Assembly (NCBI GenBank): GCA_044368575.1
Contig: JBIPPH010000003.1
Coordinates: forward strand, 8,999 to 72,998
Source of the DNA: Bacteroidia bacterium
GTDB taxonomy: Bacteria > Bacteroidota > Bacteroidia > NS11-12g > UBA955
Reading direction: 5' to 3'
DNA: 64,000 nucleotides
Each line of letters begins with the position of its first letter. Positions within the stretch are counted from its first letter, which is position 1. The translations under genes were made by a program, and so were the position numbers. This document shows positions 42,888 to 51,267 of this stretch, in pieces. Below the pieces are notes generated by a model. It saw nothing but the letters and a program-made list of their open reading frames with translations. It ran no database searches and was not told the origin of the DNA.

Positions 42888-44279
42888 ATGAGTCACGGAC
42901 ACGAAATCCATATTCAACAAGAGCAATACAGTTTCAATGGTAAAGCTAAAACTTTAAGCATTGCTTTATTGGCAATCGGTATATTGTTAACCATTGTTGG
43001 CATTTTTACTTTGCCAAGAACTGATGCCCACCATGATGAGCATGCAAAAGCCACCACTACTGAGGCAGCTGCTCACCATGCAACTGAAGCCCATGCCTAC
43101 CCAGGTCAAAACATTAACGGTGTAGACGTAGGACACAGCAATGAGCAAGTTTATCCTATTGTTGCTGAACACAGCAAACCATGGACTACAAGAATTTATT
43201 CAACTTTGTTAGTCAATAGTTATTTCCTATTGTTAATCTCAGCTTGTGCTTTGTTTTTCTTTGCTTTGCAATACATTGCCAATGCTGGTTGGGCTACAGT
43301 ATTATTACGTGTGCCGCAAGCCATGAGTACTATTCTGCCTGTTGGCGCAGTATTGGTGTTGATCGTATTCTTATTAGATGGTCAGAACATATACCACTGG
43401 TTGCACTACGAGCATTTACATTTAACTAAAACTGATGCTGGTTTTGATAAAATCCTTGACAACAAATCATGGTTCTTAAACTCAAAAATGGCCATTGGAT
43501 TTATAGTTGGTATTCCATTGGTATGGTATTTATTTGGTGTTAAATTGAGAAGCTTATCTTATAAAGAAGATACTGAAGGTGGCTTAACTTTCTTCAAACA
43601 ATCAATCACTTATGGTGCGGCCTTTACTTTTGTATTTGCTTTCACTTTGTCTATTTTAAGTTGGGTTGTTTGTATGAGTGTTGATGCACACTGGTATTCT
43701 ACTATCTTCTCAATCTATAACTTCGCTACTGCATGGGTAAGTACATTCGCAATCATTATTTTGTTCGTGTTGTACCTAAGACGCAATGGTTACCTTAAAT
43801 TGGTTACTGATGAGCATATTCATGACTTAGGTAAATTCATGTTCGCTTTCTCTATTTTCTGGACTTACCTATGGTTGGCTCAGTTCTTATTGATTTGGTA
43901 TGCAAACATTCCTGAAGAAACAGTATACTACTATAAGCGTTGGGAGATGCCATTCAAGTTCCATTGGTTCCTTAACCTTGTATTGAACTTCTTAATTCCA
44001 TTCTTGGTATTAATGACCAGAAACAATAAACGTAATCCTAAGATTTTAACTTTTGTTGCTCTATGTATTTTAGTAGGTCACTGGAATGATATCTATTTAA
44101 TGATCATGCCAGGTGCTATTGACAAACAAGCTGGCATTGGATTGTTAGAGATAGGTATGACATTAGCATTTGCTGGTCTATTCATTTATTGGACTTTAAC
44201 CGCTTTAAGCAAAAAAGGCTTAGTAGCTATCAAACATCCATATTTAGAAGAAAGTGCTCACCACGATGTGGGTGTGTAA
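42888..44279 (+). CDS. actF: Alternative complex III subunit ActF
   Basis: Multi-TM; MSVDAHWYST, HIHDLGK, FWTYL, QFLLIWYANIPEE. Confidence 0.93.
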   Translation: MSHGHEIHIQQEQYSFNGKAKTLSIALLAIGILLTIVGIFTLPRTDAHHDEHAKATTTEAAAHHATEAHAYPGQNINGVDVGHSNEQVYPIVAEHSKPWTTRIYSTLLVNSYFLLLISACALFFFALQYIANAGWATVLLRVPQAMSTILPVGAVLVLIVFLLDGQNIYHWLHYEHLHLTKTDAGFDKILDNKSWFLNSKMAIGFIVGIPLVWYLFGVKLRSLSYKEDTEGGLTFFKQSITYGAAFTFVFAFTLSILSWVVCMSVDAHWYSTIFSIYNFATAWVSTFAIIILFVLYLRRNGYLKLVTDEHIHDLGKFMFAFSIFWTYLWLAQFLLIWYANIPEETVYYYKRWEMPFKFHWFLNLVLNFLIPFLVLMTRNNKRNPKILTFVALCILVGHWNDIYLMIMPGAIDKQAGIGLLEIGMTLAFAGLFIYWTLTALSKKGLVAIKHPYLEESAHHDVGV

Positions 44280-44304
44280 TACCTTCTAAGCAACTTGTCT
44301 TATT

Positions 44305-44335
44305 TGAAAAGCAAACCTCCGGGTTTGCTTTTTCA
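44305..44335 (+). terminator. Intrinsic terminator closing the act operon
   Basis: AAAAGCAAACC-TCCG-GGTTTGCTTTT. Confidence 0.9.
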
Positions 44336-44346
44336 TTTTATACCAT

Positions 44347-44354
44347 TAACTTTG
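44347..44354 (+). promoter_or_regulatory. -7 promoter element TAACTTTG, 5 nt before the GTG of the czc leader ORF
   Basis: Exact TAnnTTTG just after the act terminator. Confidence 0.7.
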
Positions 44355-44359
44355 TCTAA

Positions 44360-44734
44360 GTGAAACGCTTGTATGCCATAGGGTTCTTGTTTATTATTTC
44401 AATGAATTTATTGGAAGCACATCAACTTGTTAAGTTGCCGGCGTTTGTTCACCATTATCAAGAACATAAGTTGTCTAATCAATCCCTAACCATTTGGGAG
44501 TTTTTAGATTTGCACTACACCAATCATAGTGAAGATATACCAGATGCTGATCACGGAAAGTTGCCTTTCAAATCAGATCAGTGCCATCACATTAATATGG
44601 CCATGGAATTGGTCACCAACAATGAATCAGAAACCACTTTTAGCTATGTTAGTGTCGAAATTGGCCTATTGGTGAATCATTATTGTTACCAGGATGGTAA
44701 AGCCATTTGGCAGCCGCCTCAGTTGATCGCCTAG
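44360..44734 (+). CDS. His-rich exported leader protein ending IWQPPQLIA (CzcI/CruR-like position)
   Basis: Signal-like N-terminus; HHYQEH, LHY, DADH.KLPFK, CHH; C-terminal QPP; first gene of the efflux operon. Confidence 0.75.
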   Translation: MKRLYAIGFLFIISMNLLEAHQLVKLPAFVHHYQEHKLSNQSLTIWEFLDLHYTNHSEDIPDADHGKLPFKSDQCHHINMAMELVTNNESETTFSYVSVEIGLLVNHYCYQDGKAIWQPPQLIA

Positions 44735-44788
44735 TTATAGCGCGAACATTTCCTTTTTTTTAATTTTACTCATAAAATTTCATTCATA

Positions 44789-47700
44789 ATGAATTTAAAC
44801 ACCATTATAGGGTTTTCTATAAAGAACAAATTGATTATAGGCTTATTTACCATTGGCCTAATCATATACGGTAGTTTTGAATTGTTCAAACTGCCAATAG
44901 ATGCAGTGCCAGATATTACTAATAATCAGGTGCAAGTGATTACAATTGCACCGTCTTTGGGTGCTACTGACATTGAACGATTGGTTACATTTCCAATAGA
45001 GCAAGCCAATAACAATATCCCCGGACTGCACGAAATAAGAAGTTTTTCAAGGTTTGGCTTGTCATTGGTGACTATAGTCTTCGAAGACGATGTGGATGTG
45101 TATTGGGCACGTCAACAAGTGTCTGAAAGGATACAAAATGTTAAAGACCAAATACCACAAGGGGTTTGCGTGCCTGAATTAGGCCCTGTTACAACAGGAT
45201 TGGGCGAAATATACCAATATGTTTTAAGACCTAAACCTGGCTTTGAGCATCAATACAGTAGTATGGAATTAAGAACCATACAAGATTGGATTGTTAGAAG
45301 ACAATTATTAGGAGTAAAGGGGGTAGCAGATGTGAGTAGTTTTGGCGGTCATTTAAAGCAATATGAAATTGCCTTAAACCCAGACAAGCTACAATCATTA
45401 GGCTTAACGATAGACCAAGTTTTTAAAGCCATAGAGGCCAATAATGAAAATACAGGCGGTGGCTATATTGAGAGAGGTCCAAATGTGTTTTACATCCGCA
45501 CCGAAGGTTTAGTACATTCAGAACAAGACCTTATGAACGTACCTGTTAAATTGCTTGACAACGGTGTGCCGCTATTGATCAGAGACATTGCCCAAGTTAG
45601 AATAGGTACTGCAATTCGTTATGGGGCTTTGCATTTGGATACGCTCGGGGAAGTGTCTGGTGCTGTGGTGATGATGCTGAAAGGCGCTAATAGTAGCGAG
45701 GTAATCAAAGCTGTAAAAGACCGTGTGGCGGAGATTCAAAAGACTTTGCCTGAAGGCATTGTGATAGAACCATTTCTGGATCGTACCAAGATGGTCAATA
45801 ATGCCATTGGAACGGTTGAAACCAATTTATTGGAAGGTGCCCTCATAGTGATTTTTGTCTTAGTTGTCTTTTTGGGCAATTTAAGAGCAGGCTTATTAGT
45901 GGCATCTGTTATTCCTTTGTCGATGTTGTTTGCCATTATCATGATGAATCTATTTCATGTGAGTGGAAATTTAATGAGTTTAGGTGCGCTTGATTTTGGT
46001 TTGATAGTCGACGGGGCTGTTATTATTGTTGAGGCTGTAATGCACGCCTTGGCGATTCGCACTATGGGTCAAATGACGGCAGTTTCAAACACAGAGATGG
46101 ACGATACAGTTAAATCTTCAGCAGGTAAGATGATGAACAGTGCGGTCTTCGGACAAATCATTATTTTAATCGTGTATCTACCTATATTTTCATTGCAGGG
46201 CATTGAAGGAAAAATGTTTAAACCAATGGCTCAAACAGTTGCCTTTGCATTGTTAGGGGCGTTTATATTGTCTTTAACCTATGTGCCTATGATGAGTGCA
46301 TGGTTATTGAGTAGAAAAGCACACAAGCCCAATTGGTCTGATTGGTTTATGCAAAAAGTGGAGGCTTGGTATCAAAAAGCTTTTGAATGGATTGTATTGA
46401 AAGTTAAATGGTTGTTTATAGGCTTAGGGTTATTGGTCATAGCTGCTGTAGTTGTCCTTACGCAATTAGGCGGTGAATTTATACCTAGTTTAGAGGAAGG
46501 CGATTTTGCACTTGAAACCAGAGTTTTGCCAGGAAGTAATTTAAATGTGAGTTTAAAAGCTTCGGAGCAAGCTTCCAAGATTTTACTCACTCAATTTCCT
46601 GAAGTGGAGAAAGTAGTGGCTAAAATCGGTAGCGGTGAAGTGCCAACTGATCCAATGCCAATTGATGCTCAAGATTTAATGATCATCATGAAAGATAAGC
46701 ACACTTGGAAAACAGCGCATTCATTTAATGAGATGGCAGAGAAAATGGGAGAGGCCTTGAAAGCGGTTCCTGGGGTTACCTTTGGTTTTCAATACCCTGT
46801 TCAAATGCGTTTTAATGAGTTAATGACTGGCGCCAGACAAGACGTTGTTTGTAAACTGTTTGGAGAAGATCTTGATACTTTGGCTTACTATGCAGCAAAG
46901 ATGGGGCATTTGGCCTCAAAGGTTGAAGGTGCTCAAGATATTTATGTTGAACCTGTTACTGGGGTAAGTCAAATAGTAGTGGATTACAAGCGCGATTTAA
47001 TAGCGCGTTATGGCTTACAAGTGGCAGCTATCAATAGCGTTGTTAATACCGCTTTTGCAGGAGGCTTAGCGGGTAAAGTATATGAGGGTGAAAAGCGTTT
47101 TGATTTGGTGTTAAGGTTACAAAATGATCACAGAAAAACACTCAATGATGTTCAGAATTTATTGATTCCAATCGGTCAAAATAACTTTGTGCCTTTGTCA
47201 CATCTGGCAGATGTTTCGATTAAAGTCGGGCCTAATCAAATTCAAAGAGAAGATGCTAAACGACGCATTGTAGTTGGTTTTAATGTGAGAGGTCGCGATG
47301 TACAGTCTATAGTGGATGAGTTAAAAACTAAGATTGAAAAACAAATTAAATTACCACCTGGATATTCAGTGCGCTATGGCGGAACGTTTGAAAATTTGAA
47401 CGCTGCTAAAAAGCGTTTAGGCATCGCTGTGCCACTAGCCCTTGCATTGATTTTTCTCATGCTGTATTTCGCTTTTCAATCTATTAAGCACGCCAGTTTA
47501 ATTTATTCAGCTATTCCATTGTCAGCATTGGGGGGCATCTTTGCACTTTACATCAGAGATATGCCTTTTAGTATCAGTGCGGGCGTAGGTTTTATAGCTT
47601 TATTTGGCGTAGCGGTCTTAAACGGGATCGTTTTAATTTCAGAGTTTAAACGTCAAAAAGAGACCCATACAGGTGCATTAACTGAAATGGTTATGAATGC

Positions 47701-49132
47701 TACTAAACTTAGACTCAGACCAGTATTAATGACGGCATTTGTTGCTTCATTGGGCTTTTTGCCAATGGCATTAAGCAATGGCGCTGGCGCTGAGGTCCAA
47801 AGGCCTTTGGCTACAGTCGTCATTGGAGGTTTGTTAATCGCCACATTTTTAACCTTATTTGTCTTGCCTATTTTGTTTATTATGTCAGAACAATCATTTA
47901 AAATGAAGGGCTTGTCCTTAAAAGCCATCATTACTATCGCCTTTATTGGTGTTGGGGTCAATGGCTTTAGCCAAACAACAATTGGGTTTAAACAAGCGCT
48001 CGATTCAGCCTTGAATAACAACTTGCAGATTAAGCAAGCTCATCAAGTGTTAGCCTATCAAAAGGCCTTAAATAAATCTGCTGTCAATATTCCTAAAACA
48101 GCTTTGACTTTTGAGCGAGGGCAACTCAATTCATATTACACTGATAAACGATTTGGATTGAACCAAACCTTGAGTTTACCAATGGTGTATTCACAGCAAT
48201 ACAAAGTGTTAAGTGTTCAAACCTTGGCCCAATCTGCCAATCTGCAATTGACTCAATCTGAGGTGAAGCAAAGGGTGCTGCAGGCCTATTTTAACTGGTT
48301 AAATCAAGCGCAACAGTTACTAGCCTTGAGGTCAGTAGATACTATGTTTAAAGCCATGTTGAAGCAGTCTAGTCAGTTGTATAGTTTAGGGGAAATAGAC
48401 ATTGCTCAAAACGCATCCATTCAATTGAAAGGTCAATCTATTATGGCGCAATTACATGTTTTAGAAAGCGCCCAAGCGCTAACGCTTTCTGAATTCAATT
48501 GGTTGTTGAATACACACGCCAATTATACGCCAGATTTGAGCTCAGGAAGAATGCCATTACCAAATATTGATAGCTCATTGTTGTTAAAACATCCGCAATT
48601 GCAAATCCTCAAGCAATATGTTCAATTAAGTCAACAACAGAGTAAATTAGAATCGTATAAATTATTGCCGGAAATTCAATTGGGATATTCCAATATGACC
48701 ATGAATGGCTTTGGTGCTGACAATCGATTTTATACCAATAGTGCTAGGTTTCAATCTTTTCAGTTTGGCGTCACTGTGCCTTTGTTTTACAATGCCCAAA
48801 AAGCCATGTTCAATGCGTCTAAGATTGACAGAACGGTTCAAGAACAAGCGTTGAAAATTCAAACACAAGCTCTGCAATTGGATTGGCAACAATGCCTATC
48901 AGCCTTGGAGCATCATATTCAATACCTCAATTATTTTGATGGTGCTGGATTGACGCAATTAAACCAATTAAAAACAACTGCCAACTTGCAATTACAATCA
49001 GGCGATATCTCTTATTCAGATTGGGTTGGACTTATGGGGCAATACTTTGAACTTCAAAAACAATATTTTGAAGTTGTTAATCAATACAATCAAAACATCA
49101 TCCATCTCAACTATTTGATGGGCCAATTTTAA
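44789..49132 (+). CDS. czcA: CzcA/CusA heavy-metal RND transporter fused to a C-terminal TolC-like outer-membrane efflux domain
   Basis: IDAVPDITN, TM4 ALDFGLIVDGAVIIVE, EGKMFKPMA, RLRPVLMTA; about 400-aa Gln-rich helical extension with beta-strand pairs after aa ~1040. Confidence 0.92.
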   Translation: MNLNTIIGFSIKNKLIIGLFTIGLIIYGSFELFKLPIDAVPDITNNQVQVITIAPSLGATDIERLVTFPIEQANNNIPGLHEIRSFSRFGLSLVTIVFEDDVDVYWARQQVSERIQNVKDQIPQGVCVPELGPVTTGLGEIYQYVLRPKPGFEHQYSSMELRTIQDWIVRRQLLGVKGVADVSSFGGHLKQYEIALNPDKLQSLGLTIDQVFKAIEANNENTGGGYIERGPNVFYIRTEGLVHSEQDLMNVPVKLLDNGVPLLIRDIAQVRIGTAIRYGALHLDTLGEVSGAVVMMLKGANSSEVIKAVKDRVAEIQKTLPEGIVIEPFLDRTKMVNNAIGTVETNLLEGALIVIFVLVVFLGNLRAGLLVASVIPLSMLFAIIMMNLFHVSGNLMSLGALDFGLIVDGAVIIVEAVMHALAIRTMGQMTAVSNTEMDDTVKSSAGKMMNSAVFGQIIILIVYLPIFSLQGIEGKMFKPMAQTVAFALLGAFILSLTYVPMMSAWLLSRKAHKPNWSDWFMQKVEAWYQKAFEWIVLKVKWLFIGLGLLVIAAVVVLTQLGGEFIPSLEEGDFALETRVLPGSNLNVSLKASEQASKILLTQFPEVEKVVAKIGSGEVPTDPMPIDAQDLMIIMKDKHTWKTAHSFNEMAEKMGEALKAVPGVTFGFQYPVQMRFNELMTGARQDVVCKLFGEDLDTLAYYAAKMGHLASKVEGAQDIYVEPVTGVSQIVVDYKRDLIARYGLQVAAINSVVNTAFAGGLAGKVYEGEKRFDLVLRLQNDHRKTLNDVQNLLIPIGQNNFVPLSHLADVSIKVGPNQIQREDAKRRIVVGFNVRGRDVQSIVDELKTKIEKQIKLPPGYSVRYGGTFENLNAAKKRLGIAVPLALALIFLMLYFAFQSIKHASLIYSAIPLSALGGIFALYIRDMPFSISAGVGFIALFGVAVLNGIVLISEFKRQKETHTGALTEMVMNATKLRLRPVLMTAFVASLGFLPMALSNGAGAEVQRPLATVVIGGLLIATFLTLFVLPILFIMSEQSFKMKGLSLKAIITIAFIGVGVNGFSQTTIGFKQALDSALNNNLQIKQAHQVLAYQKALNKSAVNIPKTALTFERGQLNSYYTDKRFGLNQTLSLPMVYSQQYKVLSVQTLAQSANLQLTQSEVKQRVLQAYFNWLNQAQQLLALRSVDTMFKAMLKQSSQLYSLGEIDIAQNASIQLKGQSIMAQLHVLESAQALTLSEFNWLLNTHANYTPDLSSGRMPLPNIDSSLLLKHPQLQILKQYVQLSQQQSKLESYKLLPEIQLGYSNMTMNGFGADNRFYTNSARFQSFQFGVTVPLFYNAQKAMFNASKIDRTVQEQALKIQTQALQLDWQQCLSALEHHIQYLNYFDGAGLTQLNQLKTTANLQLQSGDISYSDWVGLMGQYFELQKQYFEVVNQYNQNIIHLNYLMGQF

Positions 49133-49143
49133 ACCAATTTTTT

Positions 49144-50274
49144 ATGAACAAAATCATTCAATATTTTTTATATACGACTTGCATTACAACATTGTTTGCT
49201 TGCCAATCTGCGGCCAAAGAAGAACAGCAAGTTGAATCTAAAACGAATCAAATACAATTAACGGATGCTCAATTTAAGACTGTTGGCATATTAACGGATA
49301 CCATGCAAATCCAAACTTTGCAAGGCGATGTTAAAGTCAATGGTGTAATCGATGTGCCACCCCAAAATATGGTCTCTGTAGGCATCCCTCTTGGAGGCTT
49401 TCTTAAAAGCACTCATTTACTACCTGGTATGAAAGTGAAGAAAGGAGAAGTCATTGCCATATTGGAAGATCAACAGTACATTCAGTTGCAACAAGATTAC
49501 TTAACAGCTTTAGCTGAATTTTCATTCATTGATAAGGAATACAAAAGACAACAAGAGCTCAATCAGTCTAAGGCTATAAGTGATAAGTCATACGAGCAAA
49601 TTAAAGCGACTTATCAAAAACAAAAAATTGCCATTAAAGCCTTGTCTGAGAAATTGAGACTAATAGGTATTCAACCTGAAAATCTTAATGAAAATACTAT
49701 TTCTAAGAGCATTAATTTACAGTCGCCTATTAGTGGATTTGTGAGTAAGGTAAATGTGAATGTAGGTCGATACATAACAGGTTCAGATGTGCTTTTTGAA
49801 TTGGTGAATCCAGATGATATTCATTTGAATTTAACCGTTTATGAAAAAGACATTGCTAGTTTGAAAATTGGTAGTAAGGTAAAAGCCTTCACCAATACCA
49901 ATCCTAATAAAGTCTATCAATGTGATGTGATATTGATAGGTCAAGATGTGTCTAAAGAAGGTTATGTGCAGATACATTGCCATTTTGATACCTATAGCAG
50001 TGAATTGATTCCTGGTATGTATATGAATGCGGATATCACTACAGACGGAATTCATGCTAGAGTTTTGCCAGAACCAGCTGTTGTTAGCTATGAAGGTAAA
50101 GACTATGTGTTTTTAGATCAAGGCAATAAACAATATAAATTATTAGAAGTAAAGGTCTTAAAACGTTCAGCCACTTGGGTTCAAATAGATTATGAAGCAT
50201 CAGCAAACCAAGCCTTTGTTGTAAAAGGGGCATATGATTTACTCATGATGGCTAAAAATTCAGAAGAAGAGTAA
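49144..50274 (+). CDS. czcB: RND periplasmic adaptor, lipoprotein (CzcB-like)
   Basis: Lipobox LFAC, GMKVKKGE, coiled-coil hairpin, SPISG, LIPGMY. Confidence 0.9.
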   Translation: MNKIIQYFLYTTCITTLFACQSAAKEEQQVESKTNQIQLTDAQFKTVGILTDTMQIQTLQGDVKVNGVIDVPPQNMVSVGIPLGGFLKSTHLLPGMKVKKGEVIAILEDQQYIQLQQDYLTALAEFSFIDKEYKRQQELNQSKAISDKSYEQIKATYQKQKIAIKALSEKLRLIGIQPENLNENTISKSINLQSPISGFVSKVNVNVGRYITGSDVLFELVNPDDIHLNLTVYEKDIASLKIGSKVKAFTNTNPNKVYQCDVILIGQDVSKEGYVQIHCHFDTYSSELIPGMYMNADITTDGIHARVLPEPAVVSYEGKDYVFLDQGNKQYKLLEVKVLKRSATWVQIDYEASANQAFVVKGAYDLLMMAKNSEEE

Positions 50275-50277
50275 TAG

Positions 50278-51267
50278 ATGAAGTCTGAGCAATCAAAAAT
50301 CATAGGGCTACAGAAATGGGTATTCGTTGTTTCTGTTTTGCTTTTGCTGTTTAAGTTAACCGCCTGGGTATATACAGGCTCGGTTGCCATATTAACAGAT
50401 GCTTTGGAGAGCATTGTCAATGTTGTAGCTGGTATTATGGGTTTGTACAGCTTGAATTTATCTAATAAGCCAAAGGATACAGAACACCCTTATGGGCATG
50501 GTAAGGTAGAATTTATAACCTCTGCTATTGAAGGTGTATTAATTATGGTGGCAGCCCTATTTATTGTGTTTGAAGCCACTCAACATTTACTGCATCCACA
50601 AGCCATCCGATCTATTGATTTTGGTATTCTTGTGTTGTTGTTAACCAGCGCAGTAAATTATGCATTAGGTTGGTATTGCGGTAAGGTTGGTAAACAATCC
50701 CAGTCCGTTGTTTTAATGGGTAGCGGGGCACATTTAAAAAGTGATACATACTCAACCCTTGGAATAGTCATTGGGGTGGTTTTAGTAAAGTTGACCAACG
50801 CCCTATGGCTCGATGCAAGTGTGGCAATTTTGTTTTCTTTAATCATTCTGCGAACAGGGTATAAAATCATTAGACAATCTGTTTCGGGTATTATGGATGA
50901 AACCGATATGTTGGTGGTGGATCAAATCGTAAATGTTTTGAATGAACACCGTTCTAAACAATGGATAGATGTTCACAATGTACGCGTTATCAATTATGCT
51001 GGTTTTTATCATATTGATTGCCACTTAACGGTTCCATATTATATCAATGTCAATGAGGCGCATCAACAAATGGATGCTTTTACAGCTTTGTTGCACAAGC
51101 ACTTTAATGGACAAGTAGAGTTCTTTGTTCATATAGATGGTTGTGTGCCGCAACAATGTAAATTGTGTCAAATACAAGCTTGTAGCCATAGGCAAACTGA
51201 TTTTGATACACTTCAAGATTGGACCCGTCAGAATTTGTTAGACAATGCAAAGCATGGCTTGCAATAG
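50278..51267 (+). CDS. Cation diffusion facilitator (CDF) transporter with a Cys-rich tail
   Basis: SVAILTDALES, HPYGHGKVE, HLKSD, DVHNVR, IDCH, HIDGC. Confidence 0.92.
   Translation: MKSEQSKIIGLQKWVFVVSVLLLLFKLTAWVYTGSVAILTDALESIVNVVAGIMGLYSLNLSNKPKDTEHPYGHGKVEFITSAIEGVLIMVAALFIVFEATQHLLHPQAIRSIDFGILVLLLTSAVNYALGWYCGKVGKQSQSVVLMGSGAHLKSDTYSTLGIVIGVVLVKLTNALWLDASVAILFSLIILRTGYKIIRQSVSGIMDETDMLVVDQIVNVLNEHRSKQWIDVHNVRVINYAGFYHIDCHLTVPYYINVNEAHQQMDAFTALLHKHFNGQVEFFVHIDGCVPQQCKLCQIQACSHRQTDFDTLQDWTRQNLLDNAKHGLQ

Follow-up and report, generated by a model that had tools for sequence, protein, structure and literature searches.

How is a heavy-metal efflux operon controlled when no regulator gene lies beside it? 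We consider this question for an operon within a 64,000-nucleotide stretch of Bacteroidia DNA (hereafter the window; contig JBIPPH010000003.1, assembly GCA_044368575.1, positions 8,999 to 72,998 of the forward strand). Here genes for a CzcA-type pump fused to a TolC-like domain, a CzcB-like adaptor and a cation diffusion facilitator (CDF) follow a small open reading frame (ORF), whose 124-residue product has a hydrophobic N-terminus and a His-rich middle and ends in IWQPP followed by four residues. We propose, with a probability of about 0.55, that this ORF encodes a metal-sensing leader peptide, exported during its translation and acting in cis on the czcA(-tolC)/czcB/CDF operon, analogous to CutF and CruR. 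The proposal draws its support from comparison, namely from an architecture kept across a large family, from genomic context, and from complementarity between the stop region of the leader and the start region of the pump gene in many relatives; that the peptide is exported, binds metal and arrests the ribosome, and which way it regulates, are inferences.

Conservation and context of the leader family

Its conservation shows the leader ORF to be a genuine gene, one of a large Bacteroidota family that has no name. When 1.84 billion representative proteins were searched with a profile, 2005 clusters of relatives were obtained at E≤0.001 and 852 at E≤1e-10, and nearly all of the best 150 relatives are 120–135 aa long. 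The family is present in 72 of 401 sampled Bacteroidota genomes, corresponding to 45 of 180 genera, and in 29 of the 32 genomes of the window's genus, with a single copy in the window's own genome. The window ORF matched no Pfam family at E≤0.01 and no NCBIfam model, and in a Pfam scan of 100 relatives every family found was matched by at most two members. The codon aligned with the first codon of the window ORF is ATG, GTG or TTG in the relatives.

The leader peptide has a conserved head and a conserved tail, joined by a variable spacer (Table 1). At the N-terminus, KR is followed by a hydrophobic stretch that is kept across the family (pairwise identity 0.38) and is a putative export signal or signal anchor. 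The head that follows, presumed to be the periplasmic, metal-binding part, contains the motifs HHYQEH, LHYTNH and DADH. A prediction with AlphaFold2 (AF2) from the family alignment was confident for residues 1–55 only, with head helices at residues 26–39 and 45–54 (predicted local distance difference test, pLDDT, 89–95); the last 50 residues, including IWQPP, reached a pLDDT of 44–61. In an alignment of 100 members, the invariant columns are H32, H36, H52, Y53, L68, P69, P119 and P120, and columns conserved at 90% or above are E19, K25, P27, F48, F70, K71, I116, W117 and Q118. The CHH motif of the window protein is not conserved in the family, and this alignment contains no conserved Cys column.

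The tail was analyzed in 156 proteins, 155 from the database and the window's own. A motif of the form (I/V/F)(W/F/L)(Q/N)PP, 2–10 residues before the end, was found in 154 of these, with IWQPP accounting for 133; the two proteins lacking it are fragments of 83 and 99 aa. The two prolines (PP) are followed by two residues in 27 proteins, three in 105, four in 14 and five to ten in 8, such that 146 of the 154 have two to four, and the residue directly after PP is K (98), R (35), Q (19) or E (2). A wider genome sample showed looser forms of the motif (VWEPP, LFRPP, IFHPP, ILKPP) in which PP was retained. All four Pro codons are in use at both PP positions and Q is encoded by CAG or CAA, and this free synonymous codon use indicates that the peptide, rather than an RNA motif, is conserved. 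Of 146 proteins, 125 have 51–54 residues between PP and LPFK, which ends the head, and the commonest distance is 52–53; pairwise identity in the intervening spacer is nevertheless 0.13, whereas the head averages 0.45 and the tail motif 0.72. By this comparison the spacer behaves as a ruler, fixed in length and nearly free in sequence.

An interpretation made earlier from the letters of the window, here called the sequence-only reading, had anticipated much of this. It described a promoter 5 nt before the GTG, a 124-aa ORF with a signal-like N-terminus, a middle rich in His, Asp and Cys and IWQPP four residues before the stop, and these were all found. It also described a czcA gene without a TAnnTTTG box of its own at a locus without a regulator gene; indeed, TAnnTTTG is absent from the 54-nt spacer between the leader ORF and czcA (44735-44788), and Pfam and NCBIfam annotation identified no regulator gene among the neighbours of the window operon. 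Conservation among homologues of a terminal (I/V)(W/F)xPP motif, of the distance from the head to PP and of the position upstream of metal transporters, which it had named as checks, is borne out by the counts given above and below.

The promoter region was compared across 59 loci, of which 52 remained after seven that were more than 85% alike were dropped, and the start codon could be placed in 47. TAnnTTTG, which we take to be the Bacteroidetes promoter box, lies 3–6 nt ahead of the start codon in 37 of the 47 loci (4 nt in 11 and 5 nt in 24). The same box occurs in the spacer between leader and pump gene in just three, leaving 44 pump genes without a box of their own. A box next to the start codon suggests that the small ORF heads a transcription unit with essentially no 5′ untranslated region, which implies, as far as such boxes are a guide, that the leader mRNA is leaderless or nearly so. 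The start codons themselves are TTG in 19 loci, GTG in 17 and ATG in 11; the 36 loci with GTG or TTG form an observation in their own right, as leaderless mRNAs would not usually be expected to begin with a codon other than AUG.

Downstream of the leader, a gene of the ACR_tran family is found on the same strand in 55 of 58 testable loci, directly in 48 and after one small ORF in 7. In the phylum sample, the next ORF encodes ACR_tran in 27 of 30 loci, 36–368 nt downstream, the exceptions being one thioredoxin-like ORF and two membrane ORFs of 172 aa. In the sample of closer relatives, all 28 testable loci have the gene, which follows the leader directly in 21 and is preceded by a small ORF in the other 7; one further locus (L032) is cut by a contig end. 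Upstream, the largest ORF within 700 nt encodes a histidine kinase in three of the 47 loci and an HxlR regulator in one, the rest being unrelated or family-less, and thus no conserved regulator was found among these 47 upstream neighbours. The loci with an extra ORF between leader and czcA (L031, L034, L044, L049, L051, L056 and L057) come from the same genus as the window or from related genomes; the intervening ORFs are 118–153 aa long and Pfam-less, some being lipoprotein-like with a CxxCH motif and others membrane proteins.

Weaker matches to the leader profile, which cover only its C-terminal half, led to a sister family, for which 20 loci were examined (L074-L093). Its ORFs are 105–116 aa long and have a hydrophobic N-terminus, PCxD, CxPFCxCxCC and an end of the form (F/Y)GSIWQPP(Q/K)I, and all 19 of the aligned members match the Pfam model DUF6660 (PF20365). 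The C-terminal half of DUF6660 is homologous to that of the window's family, hereafter the His-type family (hhalign probability 98.3%, E = 1.2e-14, 70 columns), with LPFK aligning with SPFC. On this profile alignment the His-type family is a remote relative of DUF6660, differing in its head, which in DUF6660 consists of CxPFCxCxCC with the N-terminal PCxD and in the window's family consists of His-bearing helices. The spacing is again narrow in the sister family, the distance from Cys motif to PP being 45 residues in 13 of 20 members (range 43–47), and IWQPP lies 2–6 residues from the end. The gene after the DUF6660 ORF encodes ACR_tran in 15 of 20 loci, a TonB-dependent receptor in three, OEP in one and HMA in one. 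The occurrence of the same tail on two sensor heads, before importers as well as exporters, points to a portable module rather than a contact for one partner. The window protein itself did not match the PF20365 model, PF20365 was not among the best 25 of 41 Pfam families for the 100 family members, and the window's genome, at 97% completeness, yielded no DUF6660 gene.

Two further observations concern xPP leaders in the phylum. One sister locus (L077) has two DUF6660-type ORFs in tandem ahead of one pump gene. In other classes of the phylum, among loci L062-L071, there are weakly DUF2946-like ORFs of about 110–140 aa with His/Cys-rich middles and a C-terminal RAPP or RGPP 2–6 residues from the stop, several of which precede ORFs whose N-termini are lipoprotein- or receptor-like.

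Stop–start complementarity, proposed mechanism and competing explanations

Minimum free energy (MFE) folds showed that, at many loci, the bases just 3′ of the PP codons pair with the bases just 5′ of the ATG of the pump gene. We quantified this as the longest exact complementary run between the segment from PP+6 to stop+18 and the segment from −35 to +12 of the ATG. Runs of at least 8 nt were found in 17 of 52 cognate pairs, compared with 6.4% of non-cognate pairs, 5 of 52 when the segment upstream of PP was used and none of 52 when the coding region was used; runs of at least 10 nt were found in 5 of 52 cognate pairs, the non-cognate rate being 0.57%. Counted from the first base of the second Pro codon, the 5′ arms start at +4 to +14 nt, which a ribosome positioned there would cover or just reach; the 3′ arms fall within −32 to −1 relative to the pump ATG. 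Loci with the stem include L005, L009 and L030. For DUF6660, runs of at least 8 nt occurred in 9 of 19 loci versus 19% of non-cognate pairs, a background that is high because several of these loci are related.

The mechanism that we envisage for the leader would operate as follows. With the −7 box 5 nt ahead of the GTG, transcription would begin at this codon or beside it, and the hydrophobic N-terminus would target the growing chain to the Sec translocon. A chain of some 50 residues should be approximately long enough to span the ribosomal tunnel and the Sec channel. With the ribosome at P119-P120, the spacer of about 50 residues would fill exit tunnel and translocon, and the His-rich head (H32, H36, H52, D62, D64 and H65) would be exposed in the periplasm as PP is decoded. 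Zn, Co or Cd bound to the head would then alter the pulling or folding of the nascent chain and hence the dwell time at IWQPP, which in turn would set the expression of the downstream pump. The sign of the metal effect is not derivable from sequence. EF-P, the elongation factor, is encoded in the window's genome. At the window locus, which has no stop/start stem and whose hairpin and T run make a poor terminator, candidate routes from the pause (44714-19) to czcA are this weak hairpin and T run, termination and reinitiation across the AU-rich 54-nt spacer, or a Rho effect like that of CruR. More tentatively, at a little under even odds, we propose that IWQPP(K/R/Q) is a Bacteroidota-specific arrest module behind interchangeable heads, with Zn/Co/Cd sensed by the His-rich type and Cu/Ag by the Cys-rich type (DUF6660). 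Carried on leaderless mRNAs that mostly start with GTG or TTG, it would serve as the main periplasmic-metal switch for pumps of the heavy-metal efflux class (HME-RND; RND, resistance-nodulation-division) and for TonB-dependent receptors, acting through the unmasking of AU-rich initiation regions and requiring neither transcription factors nor Shine-Dalgarno pairing.

Alternatively, the ORF could encode a stable membrane-anchored or periplasmic accessory of the pump, such as a CzcI-like regulator or a His-based metallochaperone, with IWQPP(K/R/Q) serving as a C-terminal docking peptide on a flexible linker. The confidently predicted head with its three invariant His residues would suit such a protein, as would the position of the gene, nearly always beside an RND pump. 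The CzcI cluster (PF28244) was also the nearest named one in a language-model search (0.93, 114 shared features), which is a lead only; PF28244 appeared in none of the Pfam scan results, although its presence in the Pfam copy scanned was not checked. The gene for CzcI of Cupriavidus metallidurans lies, like that for the leader, immediately 5′ of a czc RND operon (czcCBA); its product is likewise small and has been discussed as a metal-sensing regulator (PMC9973294; this and the other published accounts are cited from the portions available to us). However, CzcI as described in that portion lacks a C-terminal proline motif, and the sister family places the same tail before TonB-dependent receptors (3/20) and an HMA gene (1/20), and so the tail is not specific to pumps. 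Moreover, a docking linker needs no fixed length, whereas here length is kept and sequence is not, and the placement of PP two to four codons before the stop, the box at the start and the complementarity to the start region are traits of an mRNA rather than of a mature protein. We therefore regard an accessory protein as unlikely. A different possibility is plain translational coupling with no regulated arrest, in which constitutive translation of the ORF opens structure or allows reinitiation at czcA, and PP is conserved for the function or turnover of the protein. In most loci the stems do overlap the stop codon (5′ arm at +4 to +14, stop at +9 to +18), such that any terminating ribosome would melt them, and the window spacer is short, AU-rich and devoid of strong structure. 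To our knowledge, initiation in Bacteroidota is not led by Shine-Dalgarno pairing, which could likewise favour coupling. Nevertheless, coupling leaves unexplained the invariant PP, the three residues before it, the fixed distances to head and stop, and the same tail on two sensor heads. In L025, the tail of which has 11 residues, the arm keeps its usual distance from PP (+11) although the stop codon lies 25 nt further on (+36), thus tracking PP and not the stop, and spacers of up to 368 nt or an intervening ORF (7 loci) disfavour simple reinitiation. Coupling of this kind is in our estimate very unlikely.

The remaining alternative concerns the window alone and was the mechanism favoured by the sequence-only reading, in which a ribosome paused at QPP would mask the 5′ arm of the hairpin at 44727-44745 and so block a terminator formed by this hairpin and the T8 run, with metal toggling read-through into czcA. 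Both elements are present, the 5′ arm starts 10 nt after the P120 codon begins, inside a ribosome footprint, the stretch 3′ of the hairpin is T-rich, and L058, L060 and L061, three near-identical relatives, keep the stem whole despite changes in the loop. One RNA-library contig ends at 44733 and another at 44709, although contig ends carry no weight. The hairpin is modest, as the sequence-only reading itself had cautioned, reaching −7.0 to −7.9 kcal/mol compared with −16.2 kcal/mol for the neighbouring true terminator, and eight non-T bases separate it from T8. A consensus terminator scan did not call it (only 44306-44333 was called), and the fold of 44690-44800 is ordinary (z = −1.52; 17 of 200 shuffles fold as well). 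As the changes among near-identical relatives are confined to the loop, no covariation stands behind the stem; the compensatory changes that had been looked for were absent, and in L052 (65% protein identity, 50-nt spacer) the stem is down to 4 bp (AACG/CGTT) and the T run to T5. Close variants also break up the T8 run, which reads TTTTTTATTTAAA in L058 and L061, RNA-library contigs carry insertions after 44758 and 44763, and contigs from two of four RNA libraries read through the site. A metagenome scan added two near-identical window-type loci only. A G+C-rich stem running directly into a U tract and backed by covariation, as defines an intrinsic-terminator attenuator, was thus not found at 44727-44761, and other loci of the family instead pair the stop region with the pump start region (17/52 by exact runs). 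We accordingly give the terminator switch little credence; the part of the sequence-only reading that gains support is an exported, metal-sensing xPP leader gating the czc operon, for which PP, spacer, box, context, shared tail and, in roughly a third of loci, the stop/start stem provide strong comparative evidence, and the part that is not supported is the hairpin/T8 switch.

The leader-peptide reading has to be weighed against several unfavourable points. The head half is predicted to fold confidently, as a stable protein would. Duplex energies between stop and start segments were more favourable for cognate than for permuted partners (−11.45 vs −7.38 kcal/mol for 27 loci and −9.44 vs −6.86 kcal/mol for 52 loci), and the cognate mean was reached in none of 20,000 permutations, but the same 5′ segments pair equally well with the czcA coding sequence at +40 to +87 (mean −9.94 vs −9.44 kcal/mol, Wilcoxon p = 0.79); this control fails, and so the energy-based result is not specific and exact runs, which alone set cognate pairs apart from the controls, were used instead. 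About two-thirds of the loci have no run of at least 8 nt. A stop-overlapping stem is also expected from plain translational coupling without arrest, and since ordinary coupling would need the same stem, the stem alone is no proof of arrest. The window locus has no stem between stop region and start region, and its complementarity is the weakest of all (−2.0 kcal/mol, rank 27 of 27 and 52 of 52). A second promoter-like match within the leader ORF, TAGATTTG at 44505, could act as a separate promoter for czcA, and the RNA evidence consists of assembled contigs, from which starts, ends, strand and level are not readable. The leader matches neither PF11162 nor PF20365 directly, and WQPP and QPPQ do not fit the arrest motif (R/Q/H)(A/G/D)(P/G/S)(P/G) given in the available portion of 10.1101/2023.09.02.556018, where most RAPP-like sequences are moreover reported not to stall. 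Finally, the stall, export, metal binding and cis-dependence are, for the family as a whole, properties that we infer.

The operon in the window

The features of the locus are collected in Table 1. The terminator at the end of the alternative-complex-III cluster marks the 5′ boundary of the transcription unit; RNA-library contigs from three runs end at 44222-44294 and none spans 44294-44386, contig ends and the uncovered stretch 44318-44385 again carrying no weight. In two of four metatranscriptome libraries a single assembled contig spans the ORF, the spacer and czcA (44558-44940 and 44540-44860), which agrees with co-transcription of leader and czcA, although carry-over of DNA is possible. 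A sigma-70 promoter scan was disregarded, its model not being applicable to Bacteroidota promoters.

Table 1. Features of the leader and efflux operon, in window coordinates
Feature	Position	Strand	Remarks
Canonical intrinsic terminator, end of alternative-complex-III cluster	44306..44333	+	Sole terminator-like site called in 44000-45200; MFE −16.2 kcal/mol
Bacteroidota-type −7 promoter box, TAACTTTG	44347-44354	+	5 nt between box and GTG at 44360
Leader ORF, 124 aa	44360-44734	+	GTG start, TAG stop
Putative export signal or signal anchor, residues 1–18 (KR + hydrophobic helix)	44360..44413	+	AF2 helix residues 2–18, pLDDT 81–92
His/Asp-rich head, residues 19–71, ending LPFK	44414..44572	+	Invariant H32, H36, H52, Y53, L68, P69 (100 sequences)
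Variable spacer, residues 72–115	44573..44704	+	Pairwise identity 0.13; pLDDT 44–61
IWQPP motif (I116 W117 Q118 P119 P120), candidate ribosome-arrest site	44705..44719	+	Putative arrest
Tail QLIA and TAG stop	44720..44734	+	Stop at 44732-44734
Weak hairpin over last codons and stop	44727..44745	+	MFE −7.0 to −7.9 kcal/mol
T8 run	44754..44761	+	8 nt 3′ of hairpin stem
AU-rich 7-bp inverted repeat, ATTCATT-CAT-AATGAAT	44778..44794	+	czcA ATG in 3′ arm; −1.8 kcal/mol
czcA, 1447 aa: heavy-metal RND pump of CzcA type with a fused TolC-like outer-membrane domain	44789..49132	+	ACR_tran 4.1e-275, OEP 2.7e-23
RND periplasmic adaptor (CzcB-like)	49144..50274	+	HlyD_D23 3.5e-26; TIGR01730 126.3 bits (cut-off 94.9)
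Cation diffusion facilitator transporter	50278..51267	+	Cation_efflux 3.6e-46, ZT_dimer match; TIGR01297 196.3 bits

The czcA ORF scored 1135.8 bits against TIGR00914, CusA/CzcA (cut-off 701), and the fusion to the TolC-like domain lies within this single ORF, with ACR_tran at residues 6–1032 and OEP at residues 1265–1445. Genes 5′ of the unit encode alternative complex III, and those beyond the operon encode MFS, SulP, DUF2490 and thiolase proteins. The last ORF of the alternative-complex-III cluster (463 aa, 42888-44279) had no significant Pfam or NCBIfam match, and Pfam-less ORFs of 465–473 aa are also the upstream neighbour of the leader at several loci of the same genus.

Two features of the DNA around the leader deserve mention. 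The second TAnnTTTG match, at 44505-44512, overlies the conserved FLDLHY codons and may be due to chance or be an internal promoter. The perfect inverted repeat at the start of czcA is a weak structure, the arms of which are retained in L052, where the loop carries an A-to-G change.

Relation to known arrest leaders and metal sensors

Several known systems share the design proposed for the window leader. CutF of Rhodobacter capsulatus (cutFOG; DUF2946-like), which is small and exported, as the leader product is presumed to be, is the product of the first gene in an operon for metal detoxification (PMC9973294; 10.1101/2025.02.05.636593), and it combines a periplasmic metal motif with a C-terminal proline motif near the stop (PMC9973294). 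In the cutFOG operon, the initiation region of the next gene is sequestered in a stem-loop, which the paused ribosome opens (PMC9973294; 10.1101/2025.02.05.636593). This stem is comparable to the stop/start stem in 17 of the 52 His-type loci, whereas the window locus has none. In contrast to CutF, the His-type family has a His-type head with no conserved Cys, IWQPP instead of PPP, and a CzcA-type RND pump instead of a multicopper oxidase as its target; its loci have no Shine-Dalgarno sequence to shield, and the stems instead cover the AU-rich region from −32 to −1 on an mRNA that is apparently leaderless.

CruR (Bordetella pertussis bp2923, PF11162) has an export signal, for which the His-type family has a putative counterpart, and resembles that family in a metal motif, presumed in the His-type head, set at a conserved distance from a C-terminal xxPP, and in the first position in a metal-homeostasis operon (PMC9426467). 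A conserved 45 residues separate its CXXC from RAPP, which lies 3 residues from the end (PMC9426467); this spacing equals the mode of DUF6660 (range 43–47), compared with 52–53 in the window's family when measured from LPFK. Unlike the window leader, CruR has CXXC and RAPP and controls a TonB-dependent importer through Rho-dependent termination across a 162-nt spacer (PMC9426467). The two systems also respond to copper in opposite directions, with copper prolonging the CutF pause and turning cutO on (10.1101/2025.02.05.636593) and relieving the CruR arrest and turning bfrG off (PMC9426467).

With CutF and CruR the His-type family shares the C-terminal proline motif near the stop, the conserved spacing and the first place in a metal operon; a PF11162 match, a conserved Cys motif (CXXC or CxxxC) and RAPP or PPP, which define those proteins by sequence, were not found. 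PF11162 had no match in the window protein or anywhere in the window's genome and was matched by one of 100 family members (E = 0.035), and the weak PF11162 matches in the phylum sample fall at other loci. By analogy, we lean towards the view that the His-type family works like CutF and CruR while lying outside DUF2946 by the Pfam definition.

Peptides of the RAPP type (ApdA, ApdP and the RQH family) and SecM are short ORFs with an export signal and with PP or GP a few codons before the stop that regulate the next gene in cis, as is proposed for the leader, but they differ from it in monitoring Sec or YidC and in lying upstream of secA, secDF or yidC (10.1101/2023.09.02.556018). The Bacteroidota arrest clusters described in the available portion of that study end in NSP-stop or NAP-stop or have RAPP-like motifs (10.1101/2023.09.02.556018).

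If the proposal is true, translocon-coupled sensing of metal by a nascent chain would extend from copper in Proteobacteria (CutF and CruR) to a His-based sensor on Zn/Co/Cd efflux operons and would reach a phylum that initiates translation without Shine-Dalgarno pairing, with WQPP as a new arrest sequence. It would account for the control of czc-type pumps that have no adjacent regulator in many Bacteroidota, and a family of about 2000 sequence clusters, along with Pfam DUF6660, would gain a function. The His-type and DUF6660 leaders would then offer a natural series of sensor heads on one arrest module, with which to study how signals from beyond the membrane reach the peptidyl-transferase centre.

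Some of these proteins may have been catalogued before. Ozturk et al. listed 5334 "CutF-like" proteins, 19% of them from Bacteroidota and with ACR_tran as a frequent neighbour (PMC9973294), and in the portion of their account available to us histidine-only motifs are confined to clusters 14 and 17, beside HupE/UreJ genes (PMC9973294). These probably include the Cys-type DUF6660 proteins, and list D of the same work may contain the His-type family. The literature searched, which did not extend to the supplementary list of PMC9973294, yielded no mention of WQPP, DUF6660/PF20365 or the His-type family. What distinguishes the leader from the known systems is its His-based head, its WQPP motif, its apparently leaderless setting free of Shine-Dalgarno sequences, and a tail module that DUF6660 shares.

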